Shown here piece by piece: positions 18,201 to 63,298 of a stretch of 64,000 nt of DNA. The translations under genes were made by a program, and so were the position numbers. This DNA comes from a virus: the IMG/VR virus record IMGVR_UViG_3300032249_001455, positions 9,429-73,428 of that record; one strand, 5' to 3'. The stretch's first letter is position 1. Every line of letters starts with the position of its first letter. The notes beneath the pieces were generated by a model. That model was not told where the DNA came from, did no database searches, and saw only the letters and a program-made list of their open reading frames with translations.

Positions 18201-18591
18201 ATCGTCCATAAAGGGCGCATACGCCTATTACTGCCTCTTGAACGGCTATACTCTGGGTCCGTTCAACGCGATGGCCAGGGGCCTTCAGATGGACTTTGAG
18301 AGGCAGGCGTCCGTACTCAACATGCTTGACTCCATGGCGGCCAAGTGGAACAAGCGAGACTTCTTCAGCAACCTTTCTCTTCGTATAGCCTACGGCGTCA
18401 GACCCGAACTCATAGACCTCTGCAAGGTTCCCAATGTCGGCAAGGTTCGGGCGGAGAGGCTTTATTCCGCAGGCATAAGAAGGCCCGCAGACATGCTCAA
18501 AAACCCCCATGTCGTCAAGAAGATACTGAATATGAAGGACGATAAGGTCATGGAAATATTGAAGGCGGCCAAATCAATTGCTTCTTCTTAA
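15271..18591 (+). CDS. Ski2/Hel308-like SF2 helicase containing an intein
   Basis: APTSVGKT, APLRAL, DESH, LSAT, TSTLAWG, QMAGRAGRP, C-terminal HhH (VPNVGKVRAERL). Confidence 0.9.
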   Translation: MALTRLSDQLDLVSTADFPHGKYPFEKFNRVQSRVFEICDKNCNCVIAAPTSVGKTVCAELFMSHEVRVRGGKAIYLAPLRALAKEKIDDWTSPDSIFGDLKIAICTGDYRLTESRMRELNEADIIVMTSEMLNSRCRNMDSEKNDFLKDCGTIVVDESHLLTVPGRGDHLEVGLMKFSEVARDPRIVFLSATMPNVDQIADWVGCSLVKKDTYLVKSEYRPCPLDIHYETYEVSESYELTEEYKVSKAVDIVRNYPDDKFLVFVHSKSTGERVKKALQDAKVDCEFHNADLDKDKRHEVEKKFKYGKLRVIIATSTLAWGCYKHGSRVVMQDGSLKDVADIVVGDKLLCPVKDGFAPRKVVKEKTFRSDRGYFVKLECGDTMTVSEDHVFLAAKDRNSPEWCDVSYLSRGDFVAVPSDLKLWTDELADLDRFWYLVGFAFGDGCLVDCGFHADGSKKAVLDLCLGKMNRLSREVVRMFSEEFNYDAKVKNDTNGVPHVCTKKKIIVDKFLELLPLGRKDGKDDLPRAVYLNQLRIKSFLRGLFDADGGSEDHSNGNVSVGFTNISEKVVHSVRSLLLGFGIRSSFGRKRMVPSVINGRLQIPARKYSYRLRIFGVDNIQKFVNHIGFGCPDKTAKISKYLSSKITDASKDLIPARELIREHLDKNGMGASHFKSATNCDLYNSIKTQDCRRGTILKLISSARKRTRLNELVEKPYFWSRIKEIRKCRGGFFKEIEIEDPHAYIGCGAISHNCNFPARRVVITGVHRGMSEVETYDIFQMAGRAGRPGYDPRGDVYILLPDNNSEHHEDRLSSPKDIESQLLSYSGKEEDPHYKTLAFHLVSEIHHGQITTLQDIHHWYGKSLAYFQYNDLEDSIVDKTMELLMRVGAVKEVEGKYEVTSVGKVSSMMYYSPFDVADLRRNFKFLFGNGLQSNDMAVALALGNVDSIRMGFVTRAEKDEMEDFSSKVQNAFGGGYLESSIKGAYAYYCLLNGYTLGPFNAMARGLQMDFERQASVLNMLDSMAAKWNKRDFFSNLSLRIAYGVRPELIDLCKVPNVGKVRAERLYSAGIRRPADMLKNPHVVKKILNMKDDKVMEILKAAKSIASS
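16234..17526 (+). mobile_element. Intein (431 aa) with LAGLIDADG homing endonuclease
   Basis: Starts at Cys after TLAWG; block B VSEDH; LVGFAFGDG and FLRGLFDADG; ends SHN|C; more AT-rich than flanks. Confidence 0.92.
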
Positions 18592-47485: not shown

Positions 47486-47802
47486 GCCGATACTATTTCA
47501 AGGAGCCGAAAAAGGGTCTGTATCCCACTGAGGGGCTTTCCCTGAAGCTCTACAGGCTCCTCACGGAGAAGGGAAAGGACATGAAGAGGTCGGGCACCTT
47601 TTCAAAAGATGCCTGGACACAATATGTCATTTCTTTGGGGTGCGAATTCACAGATGAAACCTTTGTTCTGGATTCAGAAAGGGAAATCATATTCCGCGAC
47701 GAACATCATTTCACCCAGTTGAAGGACAGCAAGGCGTGGGACAGGCTGATAAAGGTTGATTTTGAAACCGCCATGAGGATCGCCACCCTAGGGCTGCCGT
47801 GA
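47482..47802 (+). CDS. LGxP-family paralogue 1
   Basis: KLYRLL; WTQYVISLGC; ETAMRIATLGLP*. Confidence 0.8.
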   Translation: MSRYYFKEPKKGLYPTEGLSLKLYRLLTEKGKDMKRSGTFSKDAWTQYVISLGCEFTDETFVLDSEREIIFRDEHHFTQLKDSKAWDRLIKVDFETAMRIATLGLP

Positions 47803-48858: not shown

Positions 48859-49227
48859 ATGGAGAGAAGGATGAACGCGACGCCGAATATGACGAACGAG
48901 CAGAAGACAGAAAAACTGTACGGAATTTTCAGGAACAAACTGGACGAAATAAGGAACAACGCCCGCGTGGGCCACTCATTCAAAACGCTGGACGCCGACA
49001 CCGTGAGGAGATATGACAACATCGGTGCCATAATCTCGGACAAAATCGAGGAGTACCTCTCCGAGCAAGGGCCCCATGTGAGAAGCCTTCACGCCGACAA
49101 TCTGGTGCATCTCATCAATGAGGGTCCGTTGGACGCGGTTGCGATACGAAACCACGTGAATTACGACAATATCATCGTGATTGAAAGGGAATACGCCGAG
49201 AAGATACTTGTGCTGGGACTGCCATGA
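48859..49227 (+). CDS. LGxP-family paralogue 2
   Basis: KLYGIF; EEYLSEQG; EYAEKILVLGLP*. Confidence 0.8.
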   Translation: MERRMNATPNMTNEQKTEKLYGIFRNKLDEIRNNARVGHSFKTLDADTVRRYDNIGAIISDKIEEYLSEQGPHVRSLHADNLVHLINEGPLDAVAIRNHVNYDNIIVIEREYAEKILVLGLP

Positions 49228-49562
49228 ACGAAGCCGCTGAATTCAACGATGATCGCGGGTGGCATTCGCTCTTGGGCGGCCGTCGAGCCCCCGACCCCTT
49301 CTTGGGCAACGGCCCCATCCACGACCGATTCCAGAATTTTTTGTACGACCAGCACGACCTCGCGAATATTCAATTGAAAGAATGGGGCGAATTAGCCTTC
49401 AGGAGAAGGATGGAGAAAGCGGGAGCCAGATTTATTCTTCCCGTCGCTAGTCCATGGTCTTCTAAAAAGCCCAGTGATTGGGTTTTTGATTCTCCCTTTG
49501 GCGGATATCTGGTCATAGACAGGGAAGCCGCCGAGAAGATATTGGTTTTAGGCCTGCCATGA
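49224..49562 (+). CDS. LGxP-family paralogue 3
   Basis: EAAEKILVLGLP*. Confidence 0.8.
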   Translation: MNEAAEFNDDRGWHSLLGGRRAPDPFLGNGPIHDRFQNFLYDQHDLANIQLKEWGELAFRRRMEKAGARFILPVASPWSSKKPSDWVFDSPFGGYLVIDREAAEKILVLGLP

Positions 49563-49882
49563 GAGATCTTTTTGAAATCGTGAAGGCCGCAAATCAACAT
49601 CCCCACCACGATGACCCGAGGAAGATGAAGGTCTATGACATTCTTCAAAGAAAGTATACAGACTGCTTTGAAAACAAAGAGATAAAACAATCAATCAATT
49701 TTGACTATTTGGGTCTCGCCAAGGCAAAGATGAAGTGGCATGAATATCTCAAGTCGCTCGGAATGACTTTCAACAAGAATGACGGCATCTTTGACCCCTC
49801 GTGTCATCTGGAGTGGCAACAAAGGTATATTCAAATTCCCGAAGACATGATGGACAAGATACTGACACTGGGTCTGCCATGA
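49559..49882 (+). CDS. LGxP-family paralogue 4
   Basis: KVYDIL; WHEYLKSLGM; IPEDMMDKILTLGLP*. Confidence 0.8.
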   Translation: MRDLFEIVKAANQHPHHDDPRKMKVYDILQRKYTDCFENKEIKQSINFDYLGLAKAKMKWHEYLKSLGMTFNKNDGIFDPSCHLEWQQRYIQIPEDMMDKILTLGLP

Positions 49883-50127
49883 ACCAAGAAAAGGCCAATC
49901 TGATTGAAAATCTTCTCGTTCTTAAATATGATCGGGACTTCTACATGACGACGAAATCATGGGAAGATTATATACATTCCATCGGCTGTTCTTTCAGTCC
50001 CATAGTCGTGGAGCGCTATGAGGCATATGATCCCGACGTATTAGGGCAGGCGAGCGGAGTGGTGCGTAAAATATACATCCCGTTAGAGATCGGTCTCAAG
50101 GTCTTGACTCTCGGAGGTTTCCCGTGA
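49879..50127 (+). CDS. LGxP-family paralogue 5
   Basis: WEDYIHSIGC; IPLEIGLKVLTLGGFP*. Confidence 0.8.
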   Translation: MNQEKANLIENLLVLKYDRDFYMTTKSWEDYIHSIGCSFSPIVVERYEAYDPDVLGQASGVVRKIYIPLEIGLKVLTLGGFP

Positions 50128-50414
50128 ATCTTTCGTACGAGACAAAGAAGAAACTGAACGAGATGCTGTGGAAAAGGTACTTTGAAAAGAGTCGTGGCGA
50201 GATTTGGAGTCCGGACAGAAGCGAGTGGAAAGAATACCTGTTCAGTTTGGGCTGTGTTTTGGGAGTAGAGGGGAATGGGTGGCGACACATGGCTCCTCCG
50301 CCCAACAAGATTGAGGGAACCGTGGTGCTTAATGACCCGGCAGACTCGCTCCATGGAGTGGCCTTTCCCAACGAGGTTATTACAAGAGTCTTGATTCTCG
50401 GAGGTTTCCCGTGA
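50124..50414 (+). CDS. LGxP-family paralogue 6
   Basis: KLNEML; WKEYLFSLGC; FPNEVITRVLILGGFP*. Confidence 0.8.
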   Translation: MNLSYETKKKLNEMLWKRYFEKSRGEIWSPDRSEWKEYLFSLGCVLGVEGNGWRHMAPPPNKIEGTVVLNDPADSLHGVAFPNEVITRVLILGGFP

Positions 50415-50447
50415 AAAACAAAATCTACCGCATCTGGGGCTTCTGTC

Positions 50448-50753
50448 ATGGATTATGAGAAAATTGCCCGCGCCTTCAAGGAGTTGGCGTATAGGGCGAA
50501 TGGCCTCCGGTTGGAGAGCTCCGAAGCCGGCGAGACCTTCACCTGGGTGGGCGACGGGCTTCCTCAAAAATGGAAGAGTCTCAAGGAGCTGGAAGTTTAC
50601 TTTGAAGGCGTGGGTGGCAAGGTAACACCGTACGCCGAAAAAAGAGAAGGCTACCTTGTTGTGAACATAAGTGAGGACGAATGGATGCCGCAAGTTTTAG
50701 AAGTCCCCATGGAATTCGCCATGAAGGTCCTGACGCTAGGAGGATTCCCGTGA
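50448..50753 (+). CDS. LGxP-family paralogue 7
   Basis: VPMEFAMKVLTLGGFP*; close to paralogue 21. Confidence 0.8.
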   Translation: MDYEKIARAFKELAYRANGLRLESSEAGETFTWVGDGLPQKWKSLKELEVYFEGVGGKVTPYAEKREGYLVVNISEDEWMPQVLEVPMEFAMKVLTLGGFP

Positions 50754-51073
50754 AGTGGGACAAGGAATCGCTTGAGAAGGTGACTACGATCCTTGCCGAC
50801 CTCCCGCTGGAGAAGTGGCGCGAATTCAGCCAGGAAATGGACGCACGGGACGCAATTACATCCTCTTGGGCGGCGACGGTCTGGCCCTGTCCCGTCGGAA
50901 CCGCGCACATAAGCCAGGGGCATGACCCCAAGCCAGCATACCTGAAGTTGACAAACAAAGTCGTGATAAGGAATCCGTTCCCGCACCACCACTTTGTGAT
51001 AGCCACCACTCCCTACATCGAGGTGGATGCCGACATGGCGATGAAGGTCCTCGTATTGGGAGGTGTCCCTTGA
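50750..51073 (+). CDS. LGxP-family paralogue 8
   Basis: GTG start; WREF; IRNP; AMKVLVLGGVP*. Confidence 0.8.
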   Translation: MKWDKESLEKVTTILADLPLEKWREFSQEMDARDAITSSWAATVWPCPVGTAHISQGHDPKPAYLKLTNKVVIRNPFPHHHFVIATTPYIEVDADMAMKVLVLGGVP

Positions 51074-51345
51074 AATTAGACTCCGATCAGTACTTCAAGC
51101 TCGCCCAGCTCCTAAATGACAAGTACAATCGCGACTTCTGGATGGACGACGAGGCGTGGAAGAAATACTTGACTTCATTCGGCGGCGCCAGGATGGACAC
51201 GAACAACCCCCGCATAAAGACGATCTTTTTTCAGACGCTCAATGACCCCGTCGTCGTTCTGGTGGACCCCAACGACCTTGACTGTGTCTTGGCTATTCCC
51301 GACGAGATCGCCTTGAAGGCATTGGCGCTGGGCTGTTTCGCATGA
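51070..51345 (+). CDS. LGxP-family paralogue 9
   Basis: KLAQLL; WKKYLTSFG; IPDEIALKALALGCFA*. Confidence 0.8.
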   Translation: MKLDSDQYFKLAQLLNDKYNRDFWMDDEAWKKYLTSFGGARMDTNNPRIKTIFFQTLNDPVVVLVDPNDLDCVLAIPDEIALKALALGCFA

Positions 51346-51710
51346 TGCTTGACACGGACAAGTTGTACCTCCTCCTTAACGACAAGTGGCTTGAGGTAGG
51401 TCTTCTTTGGCGCAGCGCCTTCCGGCGGCAGATCGGTCTCGACGGTTCTCCGGCCCGCCGCACGACCCACGGACACGCCGAACGAAATCTGTGGGACGAA
51501 TACCTGCGGGAGATGAACATAGTCCACCCCGCAGTAGAAGTTCATTTTCTCGGAAGGGAGACCGAACACTACTTCGTCGAGAACCCGTCGGGGAAGGGGG
51601 GTTCAAGGGACATCTGGAAGTTGGGCATCCCCAAGGAGCTCGCCATGAAGGCCATTATTCTCGGATACTTCCCCGACAGCCCCTCGCTGGAACGCCTGAG
51701 GAACTCATGA
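51342..51710 (+). CDS. LGxP-family paralogue 10
   Basis: KLYLLL; WDEYLREM; IPKELAMKAIILGYFPDSPS. Confidence 0.8.
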   Translation: MMLDTDKLYLLLNDKWLEVGLLWRSAFRRQIGLDGSPARRTTHGHAERNLWDEYLREMNIVHPAVEVHFLGRETEHYFVENPSGKGGSRDIWKLGIPKELAMKAIILGYFPDSPSLERLRNS

Positions 51711-52096
51711 AGCGAAATTTCAAGATGGGGAAGGGCGAAAAGGACGCGACCCAGAAGATATACAAACTGCTTGACGACAGACTTTTGCGGATATCTGACG
51801 AGATATACGAGGAAAGCGACCCGGCCGAATCTAGCAAGTTAAGCATGGTTAAAATAGAGAAATTCTTTCAGCTGGAGTCCGCTTGGACGGCGTACCTTGA
51901 AGGATTGGGTCTCAAGAGGACAATGTGTTCGCACAAGGACTGGCGGCGCGAGGTCTCGATAGACAACTGCAGAATCAGCGACCCTCTCTGTGTCAGTATG
52001 TTCATCGATGTTCCAAAGGAACTAGCCCTGAAAGTCCTTGTTCTCGGATACCTTCCCGACAGCCCTTCAATCAAGAAGATGATTCAACCCGCATGA
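51707..52096 (+). CDS. LGxP-family paralogue 11
   Basis: KIYKLL; WTAYLEGLG; VPKELALKVLVLGYLPDSPS. Confidence 0.8.
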   Translation: MKRNFKMGKGEKDATQKIYKLLDDRLLRISDEIYEESDPAESSKLSMVKIEKFFQLESAWTAYLEGLGLKRTMCSHKDWRREVSIDNCRISDPLCVSMFIDVPKELALKVLVLGYLPDSPSIKKMIQPA

Positions 52097-52485
52097 CAAA
52101 AGACAAAATTTACCACCTGCTCAACGAAAAACTCTTCAACATCGCCGATTTGCACTATCAAAACGCCGGCGCGGAATGGAGGACCGTAGAAAACAAAGAA
52201 CTTTGGGAAACCTACCTAAAAGAGATGGGCATGGTCTTATTCGTACGATCAGGGTGGTTCAAGGAGAACGATATGGAGGACGAAATCGAGAACCTCTCCT
52301 TCTCGGACCTCCAAGGCCAGAAAGTTGACATTGAATGGATCAAAGAAAACCTTATAATAATCCAGGATCCGCTTGCGCAGTACCATAGAGTTGGCATCCC
52401 CAAGGAACTGGCCATGAGCGCCATGACCCTCGGATATTTCCCCGACAGCCCTTCAATTCAAAAGATGCGAGAACGCAATGAATAG
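52093..52485 (+). CDS. LGxP-family paralogue 12
   Basis: KIYHLL; WETYLKEMG; IPKELAMSAMTLGYFPDSPS. Confidence 0.8.
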   Translation: MTKDKIYHLLNEKLFNIADLHYQNAGAEWRTVENKELWETYLKEMGMVLFVRSGWFKENDMEDEIENLSFSDLQGQKVDIEWIKENLIIIQDPLAQYHRVGIPKELAMSAMTLGYFPDSPSIQKMRERNE

Positions 52486-52816
52486 CGAATCAATCAAGAC
52501 CGAAGCTGCCCTCTTCATATTTTATATTTTTGTCGGACTGGTTCTTTTTCTTGTTGGTTGTATAGGCTTGTATTTTGCTTTAAAGAGACAGCCGTCAAAC
52601 CGAGAGACGCAGGTCTGTTCCGGTTGCGGTGCCGAATGGACTACACTCCACAAAGATCGGTTTTGGAAGCCTTCGGCCCCCATTACTCGTTGCCCGGAGT
52701 GCCCTATGACGGAAGAGGAGTTCGAGAAACTTAAGGAACAGGTTCGGCGAGGAGATAAGCCGGATCTGAAGAATTTGCCGTCAATTACCCACCCCCTAAA
52801 GGGAGTGGGCTTGTAA
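52478..52816 (+). CDS. Membrane-anchored CxxC..CxxC protein; last 11 aa derive from inserted element
   Basis: TM helix, CSGC/CPEC; tail SITHPLKGVGL read from element end. Confidence 0.65.
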   Translation: MNSESIKTEAALFIFYIFVGLVLFLVGCIGLYFALKRQPSNRETQVCSGCGAEWTTLHKDRFWKPSAPITRCPECPMTEEEFEKLKEQVRRGDKPDLKNLPSITHPLKGVGL

Positions 52817-52906
52817 ATCACCGGAGCCTTCTCCACAGTGTCTACTATAAGCCAATTGACACATGGCTCGTTCCTCAACAGCTTGCCGTTTCCTTGCCGA
52901 ATTCAG
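52780..52906. mobile_element. 127-bp IS200/IS605-family remnant (IscB/TnpB-type ends)
   Basis: GTCAATTACCCACCCCCTAAAGGGAGTGGGCTTGT start and TTTCCTTGCCG near the end match the ends of the 58703 element; followed by ATGAA. Confidence 0.75.
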
Positions 52907-53239
52907 ATGAACACTGACACTGCCATCTTGGAAACCAAGTTGTACGGTCTTCTGCTCAAGAAGTCGGAGGAAATCTGCAGAAATAACTCGGCTAGGTGTC
53001 CGGCCTTCTGGACTCCTTCAATCATACATAAGTGGGCGGAATATCTTGAGGGCATTGGATGCTTAAAAATAGATATCGTCCGTCCGCGGCGAGGGTGGAG
53101 CCATGCGAAGTACGCGAAATCCAAGGCCCCCGAAGGGACGCAGTGCATCGTGAACCCGGCGAATCTGGGCTTCCACAGCTTCGTTATCATCCCAAACGAT
53201 CTTGCCCTGAAGGCTCTCGCCTTGGGAGGGTTCCCGTGA
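52907..53239 (+). CDS. LGxP-family paralogue 13
   Basis: KLYGLL; WAEYLEGIGC; IPNDLALKALALGGFP*. Confidence 0.8.
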   Translation: MNTDTAILETKLYGLLLKKSEEICRNNSARCPAFWTPSIIHKWAEYLEGIGCLKIDIVRPRRGWSHAKYAKSKAPEGTQCIVNPANLGFHSFVIIPNDLALKALALGGFP

Positions 53240-53625
53240 GGGACAAAGTCTTCAAGCTCATCCTCTGCAGGATTCAAGAAATGTCCACCTGGTACAGCAG
53301 GAACTTCAACTTCCACGACAGGGCTAAAATAGATGAATGGCCGTGCAGCCAATACTCCATGATCCAGAACTACCTGGAGGAGATCGGATGCTCCCAAGTC
53401 CGATGCCCCAAGGAGGTCTTTTTGGAACTGAAGTACAGCCCCGGCGGCCGCAGGACCGCAGAACTCCTGAACATTAGCGAAGGGAAATTCTTCCTTTTGG
53501 CTCATCCTTGGGAGTCCACGACTCTAATCCTCATTCCGTACGAACTGGGCGTGAAGGCTGCCGCGCTCGGCGAGTTCCCAATCGGGCCAAAAACGTCTAG
53601 AATGCTCGGTCAGGGATTGAAATGA
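53236..53625 (+). CDS. LGxP-family paralogue 14
   Basis: KVFKLI; NYLEEIGC; IPYELGVKAAALGEFP. Confidence 0.8.
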   Translation: MRDKVFKLILCRIQEMSTWYSRNFNFHDRAKIDEWPCSQYSMIQNYLEEIGCSQVRCPKEVFLELKYSPGGRRTAELLNISEGKFFLLAHPWESTTLILIPYELGVKAAALGEFPIGPKTSRMLGQGLK

Positions 53626-53924
53626 TGTACCGTTTGTTCCTAGACGACATGAGAAACCCGCCCGACGAAGATTGGATCGTCTGTCGGTCTACACAGGAAG
53701 CGGTGGAAATCATCAAGGAAAAAGGAATCCCCGACTTCATGAGCCTTGACCACGACCTTGGCGGAGAGGACACGACCATGGTCTTCCTCAAAAGGCTCGT
53801 GGATGAAATCTGGGACGGCCAGTCCAAACCGCCCAAGTACCAAGTCCACAGCGCGAACCCGATAGGGACGCAGAATATAATCTCGTATATGGAATCTTGG
53901 ATCAAATCAACTGGAGGCAAATGA
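53622..53924 (+). CDS. Cyclic-phosphate-processing receiver-like domain protein
   Basis: LFLDDMRNPP, SLDHDLG, VHSANPIG. Confidence 0.8.
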   Translation: MMYRLFLDDMRNPPDEDWIVCRSTQEAVEIIKEKGIPDFMSLDHDLGGEDTTMVFLKRLVDEIWDGQSKPPKYQVHSANPIGTQNIISYMESWIKSTGGK

Positions 53925-54250
53925 TGGGACAAACACGATCCGACGAGCCAGAAGGAAACGGAATCTTCATCGGGGCGGTCTTTGGCGTCTTCACAGTGAT
54001 TTTCGTGATTTTTGTGACTTCAATGTTATGTTCCAAGTCAAAGATAGACCCAGAAACAACATATCAAGTATTTGATGTGACAGACAGCGTGGGCAAGACA
54101 TACCGAAACCTGAAGCGCTTTGATGGAAACACATTTGTGGACTACCATAGAAACCTGTACAGTTTCCACGGGAACTACACCGTGATCAGCAGAAATGTCA
54201 GCGGCGAAGAGTTAATGATGGAAGTGGGCATAGAAAAGGAAAACCAATGA
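53921..54250 (+). CDS. Membrane-anchored hypothetical protein
   Basis: GGAGG SD; N-terminal TM helix. Confidence 0.6.
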   Translation: MMGQTRSDEPEGNGIFIGAVFGVFTVIFVIFVTSMLCSKSKIDPETTYQVFDVTDSVGKTYRNLKRFDGNTFVDYHRNLYSFHGNYTVISRNVSGEELMMEVGIEKENQ

Positions 54251-54395
54251 ACGGTGAAAAAGAATTGAAGAACCTGAAGTCTTTGGTCAGGAGTTTCCTG
54301 AAGGAGATAGAATATGTCCCGATGCGAGCCGTAGACTGCGACCAGGACGAGATTGAAAGACTGATGGCGCAACTCGCCGAGGCGGCTAAAGAGAG

Positions 54396-54731
54396 ATGAA
54401 CCCGACAGACCATCTGATTGGCAGGCAAGAGGACTTGGACTTTCTAGTGAAGATGACTGAAAGTCTCTACAAAATGCTTGAGGAAAGACACCATGATCTC
54501 ATGGTCTTCTTCGGGGATATTTGTTGCGACCCCCAACGCTGGCCGATACATCTGAAGCCGATATGGTACGGGTATCTTATGGAATTGGGATGCAAAAAGG
54601 GCCTCCAATCAGGCGACTTCTTTAACATTCCCAGCCCTTCCAATGAATGGAAAGATACAGTGGCTTTCCCCAAGGATGTCGCCCTAAAGGCCTTGGCTCT
54701 CGACGCGTTGCCGGAAATGGACTTGAAATGA
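54396..54731 (+). CDS. LGxP-family paralogue 15
   Basis: LYKML; WYGYLMELGC; FPKDVALKALALDALP. Confidence 0.8.
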   Translation: MNPTDHLIGRQEDLDFLVKMTESLYKMLEERHHDLMVFFGDICCDPQRWPIHLKPIWYGYLMELGCKKGLQSGDFFNIPSPSNEWKDTVAFPKDVALKALALDALPEMDLK

Positions 54732-55048
54732 CCGACAAGATATACCTGCTCTTGAAGAAGAGGTTTGATGAACTGGTCGGAGCCTTTATCGCCGTCAAAA
54801 AAGAAGAACGCATTCTAGGCCTGAATGACATTTGGCTTAATTACCTTGAAGGCGTAGGATGTGCAGTCATTGACCATGTCCGCCCTCCATCGACCCCTCT
54901 TTCGGAATCGGAGAACTTCGTGATCTGTCGTAATCCCTCAAGCCCTCCTTTCGGCAAAGGGTCTGTGGAGGAGGTGTGGATTCCCAAGAAGACTGCGCTC
55001 AAGGCCCTCGTAGTAGGTGATTTTCCGCCCGCAAGCAAGCAAAAATGA
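54728..55048 (+). CDS. LGxP-family paralogue 16
   Basis: MTDKIYLLL; WLNYLEGVGC; IPKKTALKALVVGDFP. Confidence 0.8.
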   Translation: MTDKIYLLLKKRFDELVGAFIAVKKEERILGLNDIWLNYLEGVGCAVIDHVRPPSTPLSESENFVICRNPSSPPFGKGSVEEVWIPKKTALKALVVGDFPPASKQK

Positions 55049-55344
55049 CCGACAAGATATACAAACTCCTGAAAAAGAGGCTGAACGAGATTCACGCGAA
55101 AGCCATAGGCGATCCCTACGAATGGCCTGTGGAGCGCTTGTGGTGTGATTACCTTGATGAGATCGGATGTCGCCGATATCATAGTTCGGCCATCCTTGAT
55201 ATTCTTGATCAGGTCATTCCGGGAATTGAAGACCATGTGGTCTGCGTGAATCCCATGAGTGGCTTCATGAATTACATCGCCGTCCCCAAGGAGACCGCAC
55301 TCAAGGCCATAGTCCTCGGCGATTTCCCGGAGTTCTCTCTGTGA
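55045..55344 (+). CDS. LGxP-family paralogue 17
   Basis: MTDKIYKLL; WCDYLDEIGC; VPKETALKAIVLGDFP. Confidence 0.8.
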   Translation: MTDKIYKLLKKRLNEIHAKAIGDPYEWPVERLWCDYLDEIGCRRYHSSAILDILDQVIPGIEDHVVCVNPMSGFMNYIAVPKETALKAIVLGDFPEFSL

Positions 55345-55724
55345 AGGACGACAACGTGCTGAAACAAATAATAGAATCCGTCGAGTCAGTCCTTTGCGAT
55401 TTGTTTGATTGGCCCACGCGACAAACATGCGAAGCGCTGGACAGGATGGGTTGCGCTGAAAATTTGAAACTTGGTCATGTCTTTCGCATGAAATACATTG
55501 AGATGTCATATGAAAAATTCATTTTCGCCTGCAATGATCATTCATGCGTTCCGCTGGCTCGCGAATGGAATGCTTATTTGAATTCACTCGGATGTATTCC
55601 AGGATCAAAATACAAAGTCCTCCAAGTTTCGCGCAAAGACTTTATAGTCTCAAACCCGCCGGGCGGCTTCATCGTCGTTCCCGAAGAGACCGCCAGCAAA
55701 ATTCTCGTCTTGGGTCTGCCGTGA
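55341..55724 (+). CDS. LGxP-family paralogue 18
   Basis: WNAYLNSLGC; VPEETASKILVLGLP*. Confidence 0.8.
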   Translation: MKDDNVLKQIIESVESVLCDLFDWPTRQTCEALDRMGCAENLKLGHVFRMKYIEMSYEKFIFACNDHSCVPLAREWNAYLNSLGCIPGSKYKVLQVSRKDFIVSNPPGGFIVVPEETASKILVLGLP

Positions 55725-55733
55725 GGCGTCAAA

Positions 55734-56033
55734 ATGAACTCTAAAATGGGATGCACCAAACTCCACGCCCTATTGAATGAAAAGTGGGAAAAGGTGTTTG
55801 AACAGCACCGTTCCCTCCAGAAATGGGCGGAATATATCAACGAGATGGGCTTCAGGACGACAAAAATCGTATACGCTCCCGATCGGACCCCTGAAGGACA
55901 CATTGCGTATGCGATGCAATTTCCCGACCACGAGGACGTCTTCTTCGTCCTTGACCCGCTGAGCAAATTGCATCTTATTTCAATTCCACAGGAATTCGCC
56001 TTCAAGGTTCTGGCTTTGGGAGGATTCCCGTGA
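55734..56033 (+). CDS. LGxP-family paralogue 19
   Basis: KLHALL; WAEYINEMG; IPQEFAFKVLALGGFP*. Confidence 0.8.
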   Translation: MNSKMGCTKLHALLNEKWEKVFEQHRSLQKWAEYINEMGFRTTKIVYAPDRTPEGHIAYAMQFPDHEDVFFVLDPLSKLHLISIPQEFAFKVLALGGFP

Positions 56034-56308
56034 CACACCGCCAGAAATCCGAAAAATTCAAGGAACTGCTCTGGAACACCAACATCGCACGGGGATACAG
56101 CGGGCCCGACAGGCTGAGGTGGAAGAACAAGGAACAGTTCGCGGATTATGTTGAGGACATCGGCGGCAGGGTCAAGGCGGACATGAGGAAGCGCAGAGGA
56201 TATCTGGTTCTCCTTATTCGAGAAGAAGCATGTGGCAGACCCCAGATTGTCGCGGAGTTCCCAATAGAGTTCGTGGACAGGGCTCTGGCGCTAGGATTCC
56301 TGCCATGA
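56030..56308 (+). CDS. LGxP-family paralogue 20
   Basis: KFKELL; DYVEDIGG; FPIEFVDRALALGFLP*. Confidence 0.8.
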   Translation: MTHRQKSEKFKELLWNTNIARGYSGPDRLRWKNKEQFADYVEDIGGRVKADMRKRRGYLVLLIREEACGRPQIVAEFPIEFVDRALALGFLP

Positions 56309-56601
56309 GGTACGAGGAGAAGGCCAGGATATTCAGAGAGCTTGCCTATAAAGCCAACGGGCTCACCTATCCGCCGCTGCCGAGGTGGGTCGGCGACCCG
56401 AGCCCGGACAGACAAAGATGGAAGAGCATCAAGGAGTTGGAAGCTTATTTCCAGGGCTGGGGCGGCCGTTTCAAAATGGACAACAAGAGAAGACGGGGAT
56501 ATCTGGTGGTGGACTTGAACGAGGGCATGAATACATCTCAGATCATAGAAGTCCCCATGGAGTTCGCCACGAGGGTCTTGGCGTTGGGTGGATTTCCTTG
56601 A
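56305..56601 (+). CDS. LGxP-family paralogue 21
   Basis: VPMEFATRVLALGGFP*; close to paralogue 7. Confidence 0.8.
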   Translation: MRYEEKARIFRELAYKANGLTYPPLPRWVGDPSPDRQRWKSIKELEAYFQGWGGRFKMDNKRRRGYLVVDLNEGMNTSQIIEVPMEFATRVLALGGFP

Positions 56602-56638
56602 ACTTTACGTTGAAAGGAATCAAGACTATAATGCTCTC

Positions 56639-57980
56639 ATGAGCGAAGTTTTGAAAAACCTGGTTGACGACTTCCGGCGGAACCATAACAAAGAGGATGC
56701 GGACGCCCTGATCCTCGTTGACGAGCTCATGCGAGCCTTTGCCTTCACATCGGACTCCCTGAGCAAAGAGGCGGCCGAATTGTCAAAGTCTCTGCGCAAA
56801 CTTGTCGCCGAATGGATCACCGGAGACTAGCATGATTGACACCGAATCCAACGGATGGAACAGGATCGCGATGACGGTCGCATGGGTGATGGTTTCGCTC
56901 TTTCTTGCCGAGGCAAGCTGCAACACGAACGAGAGGCTGAAGAGGGTGAAGAAGGATGTGGAGAAGCTCAAGGAGAAAAAATGAAAAGAAGAGATCTTTT
57001 TTCAATCTTTTTTGCCGCGATTTTCTTCCGACGCAATTTGGGCGACAAGTCGGTGGTTCTCATCTGTCCAGAAGAAATGCAAAAGCTTGAAATTCAGTAT
57101 GGGATCAAGGTGCCGGTCTGTGAGAAAAGGGGCTCCCTGTCCCAATCGGTAGACGATTTCATCAGGGCGAGTAGGCAATATCCTCATTATCACGAGTACA
57201 ATACGGTTTACGGATGTGAGACCTACGAAGGACGCCACCAGATTTTGGCAGTCTGAAATATGATCTATCTCGCTCTCGCCATCGTGCTGTTCTTTGCCGT
57301 CCCCGTGGGATTGGAATGCCTGTTCGCCTATCTCATGGACGACGCGGAGAAGAACCGACACCTTCAAGAATCCATCAAAATCACAGAGGACAAATCGCTC
57401 GGGCAAATCAAAGTTGATTCAAACCCAAGACTAATGCCGAAGGGTGCGCCGCCCGCACTTAAAAAGGAACGAAAATGACTGAAAAACAAGTCCCCCTGCA
57501 CGAGCTTCTGGCGTCCGTTCCGGAAGACCACCGTCTGGTGATTCAAGGAGAAGGAAACTTCCCTTCTAGCACCATTGTCCCTGTCGGCCGGATGTGCCAC
57601 GAGGCATCTAAGGAGTTAGAGAAACAATTTGAACTCCGCTTCGCCGTCAGGCGACTCTTGGATGATGTGAACGCCCGCTACCCGGACAAGAATCCCCATG
57701 AGTGGAATTGTCCACACATGCAGGCTTTGGACGATATGACAACATGAGAGTTTATATCGTCATCGGAACGACGGAGGGCGTGTACCAGGACGAAATCGGA
57801 GGCGCTTGGACAGCCCACCCCAACAAGGAAATCGTGAGCGTCTTCGCCAAGCAGGAAGACGCGGAGAACTTCGTCAAGAACAGGAAGCTGAAGAAGCCCG
57901 AAAGAAGGATCTTCGGCGACACCTCCCACTACAAGGGCGGATACTACGAAATGGAGATTGAGGACCATGAAGTCAAGTAA
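56639..57980 (+). CDS. Run of six small unrelated hypothetical genes (56639-56830, 56832-56984, 56981-57256, 57260-57478, 57475-57747, 57744-57980)
   Basis: Contiguous overlapping ORFs after TATAAT at 56627. Confidence 0.55.
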
Positions 57981-58290: not shown

Positions 58291-58739
58291 AGAAGAAAAT
58301 CGCGGACGAATGGGTCAAGGCTCTGCGTTCCGGCAAGTACAGGCAAGGAAAGAAGGCTCTCAAGTTCAAGAGCAAGCGGGGTGTGACAAGGCACTGCTGC
58401 CTCGGGGTCCTCTGCGAACTGTACCAGAAGGAACACAAGAGAAAGCTTAAGGTTGAGCCGCGATCCCCCGATCCAGACGATGACCTCCCCAAGTACAGCA
58501 AGGCGTACAAGTTCGAGGACTCTTGGGAGACATTGCCAGAGAAGGTCATGATGTGGGCCGGAATGGACTCGGACGAAGGGTTCTTGCCTTCTGACCACTA
58601 CGACTACGGTTACGAAGGCTCGCAAACCCTAGCGGAACTCAACGACAACGGATGCCCCTTTCGAGAAATCGCGGATACCATAGCCAAGGACTGGGAGGAA
58701 ATATCAACTACCCAGCCCCTAAAGGGACTGGGTTTGTGA
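58287..58739 (+). CDS. Conserved hypothetical phage protein; last 11 aa from IS end
   Basis: WVKALRSGKYRQG, CCLGVLCE, LND.G..F.EIAD; tail STTQPLKGLGL. Confidence 0.75.
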   Translation: MKKKIADEWVKALRSGKYRQGKKALKFKSKRGVTRHCCLGVLCELYQKEHKRKLKVEPRSPDPDDDLPKYSKAYKFEDSWETLPEKVMMWAGMDSDEGFLPSDHYDYGYEGSQTLAELNDNGCPFREIADTIAKDWEEISTTQPLKGLGL

Positions 58740-59837
58740 TTTAACCTTGCGGTTATCCACAATAGGCTTGTTGATAGAAGCCCTTGAAATATTAATTGCA
58801 GCATTGAGATCAGCATTATTTTCATAATCGCAAGACAAGCATTTAAAATCACTTTGATTCAAGCGATTATCTTCATGGCAATGACCACATTTGCTGCACG
58901 TTTGACTTGTATAAGCGGGATTAATGTAGACAACAGGAACGCCCAACAACTTGGCTTTGTAATCAATAAATTGTCGTAATTGAAAGAAAGCCCACTTACC
59001 CAGTCTTGCATTATTGTCTTTCCACTTCTTGGTGTAACCTTTGCTCTTAACCTTTTTCTTAAAGTTCAAATCTTCTAATTTGATTCCAACCTTAAGTGCA
59101 TTTGCTTTCTCTACCAATTTCTTGCTTATATAATGATTGACATCTTTCTTGTAATTCGCTTCCCTTTTACTTATTTTCTTGAGTTTGTATTTTGCCGATA
59201 CTGACTTTTTGCTTTGCAGGTCAGTCTTTAGTTTTGTGATCTTCTTTCTGTATTCTTCAACTTGTTTTCCGCTGAAAACTTCGCCATCGCTTGTGGTTGC
59301 CAAATTAACAACACCCAAATCAACGCCAATAAATTTTTCAGTGTCATATGGAGCAAGTTCAGTTTTATCATAAAAGAAACTTACATAGAACCTGTTTGTT
59401 GGTTTGTCAAAGTTTAATTCGCTTTGACAACAAAGATCATAATCTTTGAGTGGTTTATGGTATTTGTATTTAATACTTATCCTTTTGCCAAGAGTTGCCA
59501 AGGATATTACATTGTCTTTTTTGATTGAAAGGTTTCTTGTGTCGTAATCGATACTGCCCATTTCTTTAAAGTTAACAATACCAATTCTTTGTTTCTTGTT
59601 TTTATAAACATCAACCACTTTGCCAATCGCTCTTATTGCCAATTGGCTTGAGAGGTTGTATTTCTGCTTGATTTCGTAATAAACAAGTTTGTGCAGATTG
59701 ACTTGACCAAAGGTTTTGTTTTCAAATGCGACCCTTGAAACATAGTTGGCGGCACGGTTGAAAGCAATCATTGTTTGAGTTAATTGCTCTTTTTCCTTTT
59801 GGTTGACCACCAATTTGACTTTTGTCGCAAGTTTCAT
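58719..59837 (-). CDS. tnpB: RNA-guided endonuclease TnpB
   Basis: RuvC GVDLG, KLEDL, YTSQTCSKCG..CLSC, NADLNAAINI; start taken at MKLATK. Confidence 0.93.
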   Translation of the reverse strand: MKLATKVKLVVNQKEKEQLTQTMIAFNRAANYVSRVAFENKTFGQVNLHKLVYYEIKQKYNLSSQLAIRAIGKVVDVYKNKKQRIGIVNFKEMGSIDYDTRNLSIKKDNVISLATLGKRISIKYKYHKPLKDYDLCCQSELNFDKPTNRFYVSFFYDKTELAPYDTEKFIGVDLGVVNLATTSDGEVFSGKQVEEYRKKITKLKTDLQSKKSVSAKYKLKKISKREANYKKDVNHYISKKLVEKANALKVGIKLEDLNFKKKVKSKGYTKKWKDNNARLGKWAFFQLRQFIDYKAKLLGVPVVYINPAYTSQTCSKCGHCHEDNRLNQSDFKCLSCDYENNADLNAAINISRASINKPIVDNRKVKSQTQSL

Positions 59838-59887
59838 ATTTTCACATACCTTCAATAGGTATGTATGCACCTATTTTAAAATTTTCC

Positions 59888-59969: not shown

Positions 59970-60272
59970 ATGAACCATCAAAGGCTTCTTGAAATCTTCA
60001 TGGCCAAACTGGACCAGGTCTGTCCGCTGAACAAAACCACTGGGCAACAAATAGTAAGCGGACAGAAAGCCCGTAACGACGCCTGGTGGTCGCTCATGGA
60101 CAACCATGGATGCAAAATGATACCGTCTGGGCAAATAGCGGACTTGGTCAACAACGGCCCAGGCGACTACGTGTGTATGAAGTCTTTCAATGTGTCCGTG
60201 GTGAATGCCCACTGGGTACTCGTTCCCAAGAAACTGGCGGAGAAGGCTCTCGTCCTAGGATATGTCCCATGA
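59970..60272 (+). CDS. LGxP-family paralogue 22
   Basis: WWSLMDNHGC; VPKKLAEKALVLGYVP*. Confidence 0.8.
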   Translation: MNHQRLLEIFMAKLDQVCPLNKTTGQQIVSGQKARNDAWWSLMDNHGCKMIPSGQIADLVNNGPGDYVCMKSFNVSVVNAHWVLVPKKLAEKALVLGYVP

Positions 60273-60544
60273 GCATAATGGACACGGCGGAGGGATGGAA
60301 GAAACTCTACTGTATCATCCAATCCGACTTCGCCCTGCACCGCATGTACCAAAGGACAGACGAGGAGTGGAACAGAAAGTTGAAATCCCTCGGCGGCATA
60401 TTCTCCGAAGAAAAGCCTTGGCGCGGGATCAGGAAACAAATAAACCCCAACGACACGATCACCATGTCAAATCCCGCCGGCGGATGGATTCAAATTGAAG
60501 TTGAGACCGCAGAGAAAATAGTGGTGTTTGGGTCAATTCCGTGA
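60269..60544 (+). CDS. LGxP-family paralogue 23
   Basis: KLYCII; WNRKLKSLGG; ETAEKIVVFGSIP*. Confidence 0.8.
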   Translation: MSIMDTAEGWKKLYCIIQSDFALHRMYQRTDEEWNRKLKSLGGIFSEEKPWRGIRKQINPNDTITMSNPAGGWIQIEVETAEKIVVFGSIP

Positions 60545-60614
60545 ACAAAATATCTTCCGCTGGCCTTGTATTGAAATATTATCAGATTATAATTTTTGCG
60601 GAGGACTTGCAAAA

Positions 60615-60905
60615 ATGGATTCAAATTATAACCCCCAAACGAAAAAAGACGTTCTCGCCGAGATAGAGAAGACGAGACGGGACTTTCCCGAGAGCCCCTC
60701 TGGATACGAGGTCGTATGCGACGCAGTTCTTGAGATGGCCTACGAGGAGATATTTGAGCTCAGGACAGTCGTCAAGAGCAGGAATTTCTCTGATTTTGAA
60801 CTGAAACTTCTGGCCGAGATTGCGGATGCGGCCTACGAAGCGGATGTGGCCGGCTGGGACACATTGCGTTCGCTGTTTGTAGGTTTCGGAGTCAAGCTGA
60901 AATGA
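60615..60905 (+). CDS. Hypothetical protein
   Basis: TATAAT at 60588 and GGAGG SD upstream. Confidence 0.65.
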   Translation: MDSNYNPQTKKDVLAEIEKTRRDFPESPSGYEVVCDAVLEMAYEEIFELRTVVKSRNFSDFELKLLAEIADAAYEADVAGWDTLRSLFVGFGVKLK

Positions 60906-61270
60906 CCGACTGGAAGGAATCTGCCGACAAACTCCGTGCCATATTTGAGGACAAGGCGCGCAGGATTAGACTTGATATACCCGCCGATGAGATTGCGGAG
61001 GAGGCTGGGAAGGCCTTCCTTGCGGGAACCCCCGGCGACGACGGATCATGGCTGATGGAAGGATCGGGACTGGAGGCTCTGATACGCCGGATCAACAGCG
61101 GCCACAAGGATGGAATAGTCCGAATCGCCAACGAGATAGGAGCCGTAGTAATAGAAGAGCGAGGCGAAGGCGAGGACGAAGAAAATATTTTTGTGCGAAC
61201 CAACGGCCTATTGATTAAAATCCACAAGGAAACCGCACTCAAGATACTGATGCTGGGAGAAATTCCATGA
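60902..61270 (+). CDS. LGxP-family paralogue 24
   Basis: KLRAIF; ETALKILMLGEIP*. Confidence 0.75.
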   Translation: MTDWKESADKLRAIFEDKARRIRLDIPADEIAEEAGKAFLAGTPGDDGSWLMEGSGLEALIRRINSGHKDGIVRIANEIGAVVIEERGEGEDEENIFVRTNGLLIKIHKETALKILMLGEIP

Positions 61271-61914
61271 AGGACTTATTCCACAGGGCGGTCAAGCTGA
61301 CGGACAAGGAGGACAACGTCTTCTTCTGGTCCGACATGCACCTCGGCCAGGAGTGCAAAAGTTGGGACGAACCCCTCTATGTCAAGCGGGGATTCAAGTC
61401 CATCGAGGAGCATGATTCCGCCCTCGTGAAGAGGTGGAATGAAAAGATATCCCATGAGGGGGTCGTGTTCAACCTCGGTGACATGCTGTTCGGCTACGAC
61501 GGCGAACGCAGGCTCGTCAGCTACTTCGAGATGCTAAACTTCAGGACTATGTACCTCCTCTTCGGAAACCACACCGCCGGGACAAAGCAGATCTTCGATA
61601 AAATTGAGGGCAACGTCTACGAGGTGAATTCGGAGAAGCGGGTCGTGTTCTGCCCCAACTACATGGAGGCTCACATAAACGGCCACATGTGCGTTTTGAG
61701 TCACTACGCCATCGCTTCGTTCAACGGCCAGGGCAAGGGAGCCTACATGATCCACGGCCACTCCCACGGCAACCTGTACGGCTCCGACATGGGAAATGTC
61801 CTGTATAAGGCAAGGGTTGTTGATGTCGGAGTTGAAAAATTCCCCAGCCCGCCCTCGTTCGGGGATATCAGAAAACTCTTCAGGGAGGATCCGGTCAGCT
61901 TCGACCACCACTGA
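61267..61914 (+). CDS. Calcineurin-like metallophosphoesterase
   Basis: SDMH, LGD, GNH, SHY, HGHSH, DVGVE. Confidence 0.88.
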   Translation: MKDLFHRAVKLTDKEDNVFFWSDMHLGQECKSWDEPLYVKRGFKSIEEHDSALVKRWNEKISHEGVVFNLGDMLFGYDGERRLVSYFEMLNFRTMYLLFGNHTAGTKQIFDKIEGNVYEVNSEKRVVFCPNYMEAHINGHMCVLSHYAIASFNGQGKGAYMIHGHSHGNLYGSDMGNVLYKARVVDVGVEKFPSPPSFGDIRKLFREDPVSFDHH

Positions 61915-61915
61915 A

Positions 61916-62281
61916 ATGGAAGAAAAAGAAAAAAGGCTGAAGGCTCTTGAGGAACTCTCCCGACTTGACCAGGAATTGGACTTGGCTTGGCCCGAGAGCC
62001 GAGAGATAGAAGGGCTTAGGCTCGTTTGTACAAGTCCGGCCTGTCCTGAACAATACGATGTGCTTGATGCCCAAGGCATACAGATCGGATATCTGCGTCT
62101 TCGTCACGGACGGTTCAGGGCGGACTACCCCGATTGCGGAGGGGATACGGTCTATGTGTCCAACACAAAGGGCGACGGCGCATTTGAGGAGAGCGAGAGG
62201 CTTCCCGAACTCACGAACGCGGTGAGGAAGCTGAAGGAAAGGCAGGAGAAGGACGCATGCACTGGCCCCGCAACAGACTGA
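61916..62281 (+). CDS. Conserved hypothetical phage protein
   Basis: ACPEQYDV, GYLRLRHG, GDG.F..ER. Confidence 0.65.
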   Translation: MEEKEKRLKALEELSRLDQELDLAWPESREIEGLRLVCTSPACPEQYDVLDAQGIQIGYLRLRHGRFRADYPDCGGDTVYVSNTKGDGAFEESERLPELTNAVRKLKERQEKDACTGPATD

Positions 62282-62622
62282 AGAAGGTTCCGCTTCCCCA
62301 CAGCAGGATGCTGACGGGCGGAGTGGAGGACAAGCTTGACTCCATAATCTTCTCCGCGTTTATGCGATTGTTCGGCCCCAACGAGAATTGGCCGATCAAC
62401 ACCCGTCAGAGGAAGGAGTGGGGGCAGTTCCTGTCCGACAGGGGCATAGTCTGGGAGGTGCGGCTCAGGAACAAGCCCAATTGGGAGGGATGGGAGGTTG
62501 TGGAGGGAAAGGTAGGCGTGGTGGTGCGTCCCCGAGGCCTAGAAGACCACATGAAAATAAACCACTACTTCGTCCCCAAAGACCTCGCCATGAGGATGCT
62601 CGCCTTGGGGGAGCTTCTCTGA
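62257..62622 (+). CDS. LGxP-family paralogue 25
   Basis: KLDSII; WGQFLSDRG; VPKDLAMRMLALGELL*; start uncertain. Confidence 0.75.
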   Translation: MHWPRNRLKKVPLPHSRMLTGGVEDKLDSIIFSAFMRLFGPNENWPINTRQRKEWGQFLSDRGIVWEVRLRNKPNWEGWEVVEGKVGVVVRPRGLEDHMKINHYFVPKDLAMRMLALGELL

Positions 62623-62972
62623 TGGAAAAGGAACTCATCGAAAAACTTTCCCGCATGTTCAGGGACGAATACGAAAAGATAGACCTGGCCTTCTACGAGG
62701 CCGAGGCCTGGAAGAAATACCTGCGAGGATACGACGAGATACATTTTTTGAGCGGAATTTCCGACATGCTCGAGTTCATCAACCACGGCGAAATCCTCGG
62801 CAAAAATCCTGTCGCGGTGAAGAACCCGGCCGCGGTCATGGGGATTCTCGTCCTTCCAAGGGAATTCGCAGAGAAGATCCTCGCCCTCGGATTACCCCGC
62901 GATGTTTCGTCCACGGTGGAGGAATTCAAAGACAGGCCCGTTCCGAGGCTCGGTAGGAAGTCCAAGAAATGA
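62622..62972 (+). CDS. LGxP-family paralogue 26
   Basis: KLSRMF; WKKYLRG; LPREFAEKILALGLP. Confidence 0.8.
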   Translation: MEKELIEKLSRMFRDEYEKIDLAFYEAEAWKKYLRGYDEIHFLSGISDMLEFINHGEILGKNPVAVKNPAAVMGILVLPREFAEKILALGLPRDVSSTVEEFKDRPVPRLGRKSKK

Positions 62973-63298
62973 CCTGGACATCCGAAGCTGTGGAAAAATT
63001 GAACGAACTTGTCACGGCAAAGTTCGGCGAAATCAGGGGTGCGATCCGACTCCTGCCGGGCGACTTCAGGGAGCATGCCATGGGGATAGATAAGGCTTTG
63101 CATAATTACTGCATGGGCGTCGGGCTGAAGATGAACATAATTCACCACACGGAGACCAGGGAAGACCTACCCGCTCCCGGAGAAGCCATATTCCTTTCCG
63201 ACGGAACGGTGAGAATGAGAAACCTCTGGGGAGACAAATATTTGGACATTCCAGAAGATTTTGCCGTCAGGGCCCTCGCCCTCGGTTTTTTGCCTTGA
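62969..63298 (+). CDS. LGxP-family paralogue 27
   Basis: KLNELV; IPEDFAVRALALGFLP*. Confidence 0.8.
   Translation: MTWTSEAVEKLNELVTAKFGEIRGAIRLLPGDFREHAMGIDKALHNYCMGVGLKMNIIHHTETREDLPAPGEAIFLSDGTVRMRNLWGDKYLDIPEDFAVRALALGFLP

Follow-up and report, generated by a model that had tools for sequence, protein, structure and literature searches.

Large DNA viruses have tandem multigene families and so-called gene accordions. Selection of the codons at the 3' end of a gene by the downstream gene's Shine-Dalgarno (SD) sequence was reportedly described by Eyre-Walker in 1996. Both 3'-end codon use and stop-codon use have been presented as selected by the downstream gene's SD (PMC2784483). Overlapping stop/start pairs are widespread, and 20 of 24 prokaryotic groups carry an SD at the 3' end of the upstream gene in roughly half or more of such pairs; the same survey describes an intragenic SD before an overlapping start as typical of prokaryotes, and reports strict coupling in 13 of 14 reporter-tested pairs, with an SD contribution that varied by gene (Huber et al. 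2019, PMC6728339). A 2025 review distinguishes RNA-unfolding and ribosome-scanning models and points out that coupling can also happen without an SD (PMC12548453). The locus described here, a tandem array of phage paralogs whose stop codons mostly overlap the start codons of the next gene, lies in a window of 64,000 nucleotides (nt), corresponding to bases 9429-73428 of the single 73,428-bp virus record IMGVR_UViG_3300032249_001455 of IMG/VR. Its core is a block of 20 family members, m1 to m20, encoding proteins of 82-130 amino acids on the plus strand (48859-56601), as delimited from the open reading frames (ORFs) and their alignment A1.

With a probability of about 0.75, the block is a polycistronic row whose genes would be chained at 4-nt NTGA overlaps and whose junction codons would be under selection for the benefit of the gene that follows. 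The family's conserved C-terminal motif, L-G-x-[F/L]-P followed by the stop, would sit exactly where the ribosome-binding site of the next gene must be, and the synonymous sites at the C terminus, possibly residue x too, would be selected accordingly by that gene. The array holds two junction designs. In the first one, a protein ending in L-G-L-P uses CCA-TGA, which would provide an ATG start without any SD and rely on termination-reinitiation at ATGA. In the second one, the ending L-G-G-F-P is written GGA-GGN-TTC-CCG/CCT-TGA and would place GGAGG at the usual spacing of this phage before a GTG or TTG. The overlaps themselves are readily observed: TGA is the stop codon of 19 of the 20 members, 16 of the 20 ends form an NTGA overlap that opens an ORF of at least 60 codons, and one more forms an 8-nt overlap (52478/52485). 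Counting the whole window, 19 of its 27 family members are coupled in this way.

The last 11 codons of all 20 members of the block were compared. This locates six GGAGG sites, each exactly 6 nt before a GTG or TTG whose first base is the third base of the Pro codon and whose TG comes from the TGA stop. Member m4 ends with GGA-GGT-TTC-CCG-TGA (50113-50127), and the GTG at 50124 opens m5 with 96 codons. The end of m5 has the same 15 nt (50400-50414), and its GTG at 50411 opens a stub of 15 codons (50411-50458) whose stop lies 6 nt beyond the ATG of m6 (50448). The end of m6 is GGA-GGA-TTC-CCG-TGA (50739-50753), with a GTG at 50750 that opens the 107 codons of m7, and m7 ends with GGA-GGT-GTC-CCT-TGA (51059-51073), with a TTG at 51070 that opens the 91 codons of m8. 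Further downstream, GGA-GGG-TTC-CCG-TGA closes m12 (53225-53239) and its GTG at 53236 opens m13 (129 codons), while GGA-GGA-TTC-CCG-TGA closes m18 (56019-56033) and its GTG at 56030 opens m19 (92 codons). The duplex energies of these six junctions range from -10.2 to -11.5 kcal/mol. A first-pass annotation, made from the sequence of the window, had listed these six sites with their spacing and overlaps, and all its coordinates were borne out. The last codons also agree with its count of six GGA-GGN ends among the seven members ending in LGG[FV]P, and the ORF lengths with its statement that five of the overlapping starts open the next family member and the sixth one the stub.

Most junctions of the block have no SD. 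Only six have GGAGG, or seven if the GGAG at 55344 is counted, where m16 ends with CCG-GAG-TTC-TCT-CTG-TGA (55328-55344) and the GGAG stands 9 nt before the GTG at 55341 that opens m17 (127 codons). Junctions of the first design are CCA-TGA ends forming ATGA, as at 49224-49227, where there is no SD and the duplex energy is -3.9 kcal/mol. Three more are found at 49559-49562, 49879-49882 and 56305-56308, and these four ends (49227, 49562, 49882 and 56308) bear out the earlier remark that several members closing in LP use CCA-TGA. Other last codons precede the ATGA junctions at 51342, 51707, 52093, 53622, 54728 and 55045. The end of m17 (55721-55744) follows a different arrangement: it reads LGLP and closes with CCG-TGA, the overlapping GTG opens 7 codons only, and the next member starts at the ATG at 55734, behind its own GAGG spanning the stop, that is, with a short spacer rather than an overlap. 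This short-spacer junction is conserved (position 9417) in L005, a related contig described below.

The codon choices at these ends were set against a background of 62 confident non-family genes (18,050 codons, called with a simple gene finder). There, GGA makes up 29% of the Gly codons, and GGA-GGN accounts for 33 of 119 Gly-Gly pairs, as many as GGC-GGC alone (33/119). The idea that GGA-GGN could simply be the default Gly-Gly pair of this genome, named in the first-pass annotation as a possible refutation, does not hold, the default being GGC-GGC. Against this background, finding GGA-GGN in six of the seven LGG[FV]P ends has a binomial P(>=6 of 7) of 0.0024. Inside the family genes (20 genes, last five codons excluded), GGA represents 29 of 115 Gly codons, and the internal Gly-Gly pairs are GGA-GGN in none of nine cases and GGC-GGC in six of nine; terminal and internal pairs thus differ with a Fisher p of 0.0009. 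Together, the P values given for the comparisons of terminal GGA-GGN are 0.0024, 0.0035 and 0.0009. Since the neighboring synonymous sites vary, the fixed A of GGA is not a simple case of identity by descent: the Leu codon beside the Gly-Gly pair is CTC, CTC, CTA, TTG, TTG and TTG in the six GGAGG members, the second Gly codon ends in T, T, A, T, G and A, and the proteins of the GG members share 23-41% identity, except for m6 and m20 (56%).

The last Pro codon departs from the background as well. Among 738 background Pro codons there are 307 CCC, 235 CCG, 106 CCT and 90 CCA, while the 12 Pro-ending members of the block use CCG six times, CCA four times, CCT twice and never CCC (P = 0.0016), the sole Pro codon that is unable to form a start with TGA. 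When all 27 members of the window are considered, the coupled non-GG members use CCA in six of six cases, and the four uncoupled ones use CCG or CCT (CCA 0/4; Fisher p = 0.005). SD strength was examined at 17 junctions by resampling synonymous codons over the six that precede the final codon and scoring the duplex with a generic anti-SD. The observed mean energy of -5.96 kcal/mol, compared to -4.44 kcal/mol for the resampled ends, was reached by none of 1000 resamples; this excess comes wholly from the GG junctions, and the other eleven have none. Selection on the junction codons is well supported by these comparisons. They agree with the earlier proposal that the C-terminal codons double as SD and start, as the synonymous choices depart from the background in the direction it predicted.

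The junction design is conserved in related phages, and the family also occurs in five other genomes or fragments. L005 is a 33.6-kb metagenome contig, syntenic with the window at ~83-85% DNA identity; the anchor protein of L001 (identical to L002, L003 and L006) is 52% identical; L004 is a 2.4-kb fragment, and G002 and G003 are more distant virus records. Related loci were sought with a subfamily alignment instead of the 20-paralog alignment, which has no conserved stretch. A codon-neutral DNA pattern for K[VA]LxLGGFP-stop retrieved from viral contigs only the L001 phage, and from genome contigs six chance matches with no family ORF. The pattern KI/LxLGxLP-stop gave 20 stretches, seven of them with family ORFs, and brought in two new phages, G002 and G003. 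Taking as coupled those GG-x-P ends with an overlapping downstream ORF of at least 60 codons, GGA-GGN is used at 12 of 13 coupled ends in all the loci examined, and in nine of ten orthologous groups when the ends are grouped by synteny (P = 7e-5). The L005 ortholog of m4 ends in IGRFP, encoded with GGG-AGA, where the residue has changed and the purine run before the GTG has been kept.

Self-chaining does not extend across the whole family, which goes against the earlier reading. In G003 (a 122-kb record, where the locus L038 corresponds to G003:C1:99000-106500), only one of eight members, distributed in three stretches, opens an overlapping ORF, and chaining is therefore not intrinsic to the family. 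The lone GG-type end of G003 uses GGC-GGA.

The seventh GG member of the window, m20, ends with GGT-GGA-TTT-CCT-TGA (56587-56601), has no GGAGG, and its overlapping TTG opens just 14 codons. Directly 3' of the block there is a promoter-like element, TTTACG-17-TATAAT (56604-56632, plus strand), and identical hexamers at identical spacing follow the orthologous gene in L004 and L005. The codons and the element had been read in the first-pass annotation as removal of the SD where a new promoter takes over. Both features are there, but the removal is weakly founded because two of the four orthologs, all of them uncoupled, keep GGAGG (L001 and L005), with GGT in the window and L004; the GGT of m20 may be drift rather than removal. 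Six bases past TATAAT lies an ATG (56639, MSEVLKNL...), so that transcription initiated at the customary distance from the -10 element would yield a leaderless or almost leaderless RNA. The arrangement of promoter and ATG at 56604-56641 is the same in L004, and the ATG is farther downstream in L005.

The GGAGG sites have the spacing seen for SD cores elsewhere in this phage. The SD cores GGAG, GAGG or AGGA ending 4-10 nt before the start of the 62 non-family genes amount to 36, compared to 7.8 expected from positions 20-54 upstream of the same genes. They peak at 7-8 nt, and GGAGG with its 6-nt spacer falls on this peak. Because SD cores peak 5-10 nt upstream of the other genes of the phage, the junction SD is plausibly read by ribosomes. 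At the coupled junctions of the window, the mean SD energy is -3.8 kcal/mol for ATG starts (n = 13) and -9.8 kcal/mol for GTG/TTG starts (n = 6; p = 0.0006), and the tendency of strong SDs to go with GTG/TTG starts reaches p = 5e-7 when the window, L005 and L001, three related genomes, are pooled. Public gene calls contain proteins of 96 (P0001) and 91 (P0004) amino acids, the lengths of m5 and m8 when these start at their GTG and TTG. In annotating such arrays, GTG/TTG starts that overlap the stop of the gene before should be trusted. P0003, an ortholog of m5 from a metagenome, extends about 31 residues beyond LGGFP (127 amino acids instead of 96) and appears to be a variant that has lost the junction stop.

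Comparison of related strains shows that they have gained or lost whole cassettes, with breakpoints at or near the junctions. As the compared contigs are metagenome assemblies at >=85% likeness, their joints show related strains and not one population. One case is m15 (54728-55044, plus strand, 317 nt start-to-start), which neither L005 nor a contig of run X2 contains. An identical 20-nt direct repeat flanks it (54726-54745 and 55043-55062) and covers the stop/start overlap together with the six opening codons; the single L005 junction at this site is a chimera of the two window junctions across the repeat. The run X2 contig over the block has the same 317-nt joint. In three runs of another study, a joint leads from 49882, the last base of the m3 stop, to 51378 with 32 other letters in between, a net loss of 1463 nt that exactly equals the start-to-start distance between m4 and m9 (m4-m8). 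A third joint, from 51685 to 52089, removes a net 383 nt, about one gene, corresponding to m10 (386 nt start-to-start). Finally, the L005 alignment breaks one base past the m5 stop (50415) and resumes only in m9-m11, L005 having one gene at the place of five in the window. In L005 the m5 ortholog is followed by a full family gene, and the first ~8 codons of the 15-codon stub are homologous to the N terminus of that gene. The stub is what remains of the 5' end of a lost member, truncated by a rearrangement within the conserved N-terminal K-[I/L]-Y region.

Since the same overlap opens and closes every unit, unequal recombination would insert or delete entire units while the chain stays in frame. 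The first-pass annotation had proposed that each gene carries the translation signal for whatever is placed after it, and that cassettes can be duplicated or shuffled and stay expressed. Whole-member indels of 1463, 317 and ~383 nt, whose net sizes match start-to-start distances, give real support to the cassette behavior. An SD is present at only 6-7 junctions, however, and the shuffling is not always clean, as the leftover stub illustrates. The earlier interpretation is, overall, partly supported.

Several observations weigh against a row of chained genes with selected junction codons. Only 20 of the 62 non-family genes, about one third, carry an SD core, and in a cruder energy test with longest-ORF starts the SD signal was not significant (p = 0.07-0.19). 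Uncoupled GG-x-P ends keep GGA-GGN in three of six cases, so that the comparison with the coupled ends gives p = 0.07, and one coupled GG end in G002 is GGG-GGC, the sole exception. At the ten coupled ATGA junctions of the block, pairing with the anti-SD is weak (+0.1 to -6.1 kcal/mol) and synonymous choice adds no strength to it, which means that an SD is not required for chaining. The folds of 12 junction RNAs revealed no unusual structure (z from -0.96 to +2.3), leaving a coupling of the RNA-unfolding type unsupported. The strong-SD/non-ATG pairing fails in G002 (-5.7 versus -6.3 kcal/mol, p = 0.5). Lastly, the 3'-terminal bases of m4 and m5 are identical at 26 of 27 positions, so these two members are perhaps not independent and some local 3'-end gene conversion is likely; merging them into one gives P(>=5 of 6) = 0.0076. 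Separately, a strong SD compensating for a weak start was considered as a general rule and rejected, as it holds in the lineage of the window and not in G002.

The likeness of m4 and m5 is what would be expected if GGAGG had been inherited, or spread by gene conversion among 3' ends, without any function, the overlapping starts being by-products of genome compactness. The relatedness of the window, L005 and L001, whose counts are not independent, and the retention of GGAGG by the uncoupled m20 orthologs of L001 and L005 point the same way. This explanation is unlikely nonetheless: synonymous sites around the motif are not the same in the remaining GG members, and protein identity is 23-41%; the internal Gly-Gly pairs are never GGA-GGN; the terminal Pro is never CCC, with CCA at coupled ends only; and G002, an independent phage, has GGAGG at two of its three coupled GG ends. 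It is doubtful, albeit clearly less improbable, that the GGAGG sites act as internal ribosome entry points in their own right, which boost or reset particular members, with no dependence of the downstream gene on the upstream one. With its 6-nt spacer, GGAGG makes a strong SD at the preferred spacing of the genome, the unstructured junction RNAs could be bound directly by 30S subunits, and some overlapping pairs of Escherichia coli show substantial de novo initiation (PMC6728339). Yet the start always overlaps the stop by 4 nt, a geometry associated with reinitiation, and the same array has SD-less ATGA junctions, which need coupling. That ribosomes use the junction sites, by reinitiation or by fresh binding, is inferred, and use of the GGAGG sites by terminating ribosomes is here inseparable from use by fresh 30S subunits. 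SD-like sequences have been proposed to slow elongating ribosomes, and the codon choice could in principle serve the upstream protein, through a pause before termination or a tRNA or codon-pair preference for the C-terminal Gly-Gly. This is very improbable, as a fixed first Gly codon followed by a free second one agrees with a GGAGG motif but not with a rule for codon pairs, the choice of terminal Pro codon varies together with the presence of a downstream ORF, and the Gly-Gly pairs inside the family favor GGC-GGC. Chaining at NTGA overlaps with codons selected for the next gene is thus the preferred explanation.

The mechanism is the known textbook one, in which stop and start overlap by 4 nt and the SD lies within the upstream gene, and the unexplained part is the protein family itself, which is uncharacterised by Pfam, PHROGs and fold searches. 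A hidden Markov model (HMM) built from the 20-member alignment A1 finds 27 family ORFs in the window. Besides the block, which is interrupted by non-family genes at 52478-52816 and 53622-54399, the HMM search identified six ORFs at 59970-63298 on the plus strand (ending at 60272, 60544, 61270, 62622, 62972 and 63298) and a further one ending at 47802. Identity to the first member ranges from 17 to 28% across the block. The common motifs of A1 are W..YL...G in the middle of the protein and IP.E.A.K.L.LG.FP at its end, and at least 90% of the members have the L, G and P of the latter motif. Residue x, between G and [F/L], is G in seven of the 20 members, Y in three, D in two and E, C, F or A in one each, and is missing (LGLP) in the remaining four.

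A public profile search over 1.84 billion representative proteins detected 442 family clusters at E <= 0.001, and 128 of 169 homologues retrieved are Pro-terminal. No Pfam family scored above the cut-off in a scan of six members, and the best E-value for ten members against PHROGs was only 0.05. A confident AlphaFold2 model of m18 from an alignment of 144 sequences (mean predicted local distance difference test score 87.6, predicted template modeling score 0.73) predicts two helices, five strands and a C-terminal helix (alpha2-beta5-alpha). Foldseek comparisons of this model with PDB and BFVD returned nothing at E <= 0.001, a wide VIA-align search found no convincing relative (best Z 4.2), and feature scores in the ESM Atlas search were 0.84 at most. 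The overall pattern of the family, with its many copies and a copy content that varies between close strains, fits accessory or host-interaction genes.

A more far-reaching proposal is that the C terminus is a true dual-coding module, where ribosome-binding duty would have shaped the protein (x being Gly, Glu or Arg, with the end at Pro) and produced plug-compatible genes and a reshufflable arsenal. This is possible but tentative. Gly is found at x in 32 of 89 proteins that stop at the Pro and in 5 of 31 that continue (p = 0.03), an excess that is a hint only, because the sample is inflated by one orthologous subfamily; for Gly, Glu and Arg taken together the same comparison gives p = 0.37. 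If the proposal were true, the phage would expand, contract and reshuffle an accessory arsenal of 20-30 genes by unequal recombination with expression kept, a phage counterpart of viral gene accordions on a fold not yet described.

The window also encodes a DnaB-like helicase, a RecA-like protein, a C5 DNA methylase, an RNA ligase, a TnpB-like protein and tail-fibre-like proteins. When the DnaB-like helicase was compared by tblastn with 50,697 phage records, no close isolate emerged; the top match, from an uncultured 595-kb phage, was 42% identical. Within the array, 53622-53924 encodes a cyclic-phosphate processing receiver domain protein (Pfam cREC_REC, E = 5e-23), chained to the family member before it through an ATGA overlap. 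Between the two parts of the array, and on the strand opposite to it, lies the TnpB-like ORF (58719-59870, minus strand), with Pfam OrfB_IS605 and Cas12f1-like TNB domains. Elsewhere, a DEAD-box helicase (15271-18591) is split by an intein with a LAGLIDADG homing-endonuclease domain, and 26560-29238 and 34324-36624 encode large tail-fibre-like proteins with arylsulfotransferase-like repeats, the latter opening with a major-tropism-determinant N-terminal domain (Mtd_N).

The literature search, which did not extend to supplementary files, found no paper on this family or on a chained phage paralog array. The junctions resemble the known ATGA/GTGA termination-reinitiation pairs in being co-directional, in their NTGA overlap, in having the SD in the upstream gene at normal spacing and in a variable need for it. 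Unlike in the usual coupled pairs, the signal lies within the conserved C-terminal motif of multi-copy paralogs, and for this reason the same junction recurs down a tandem array. Two junction designs are moreover present in one array.

The locus also shares with the known selection on gene 3' ends that the last synonymous choices depart from the genome norm, as those bases are the ribosome-binding site of the next gene. The known cases are genome-wide trends, whereas here the effect is seen in a single family and codon by codon, with GGA as the first Gly codon and a last Pro codon that is never CCC. The array offers a case of synonymous-site selection for the translation signal of a neighbor at the level of individual codons, and shows how a tandem gene family could carry its own expression context while growing and shrinking. 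Self-chaining cassette is a fair description of its units, with comparative support, as a consequence of ordinary coupling and unequal recombination and not as a new system. Like the viral gene accordions, this phage has many diverged tandem paralogs (27 in a 73-kb genome), with a copy number that varies between close strains by cassette-sized indels; unlike them, its units would be translationally chained rather than separately expressed.

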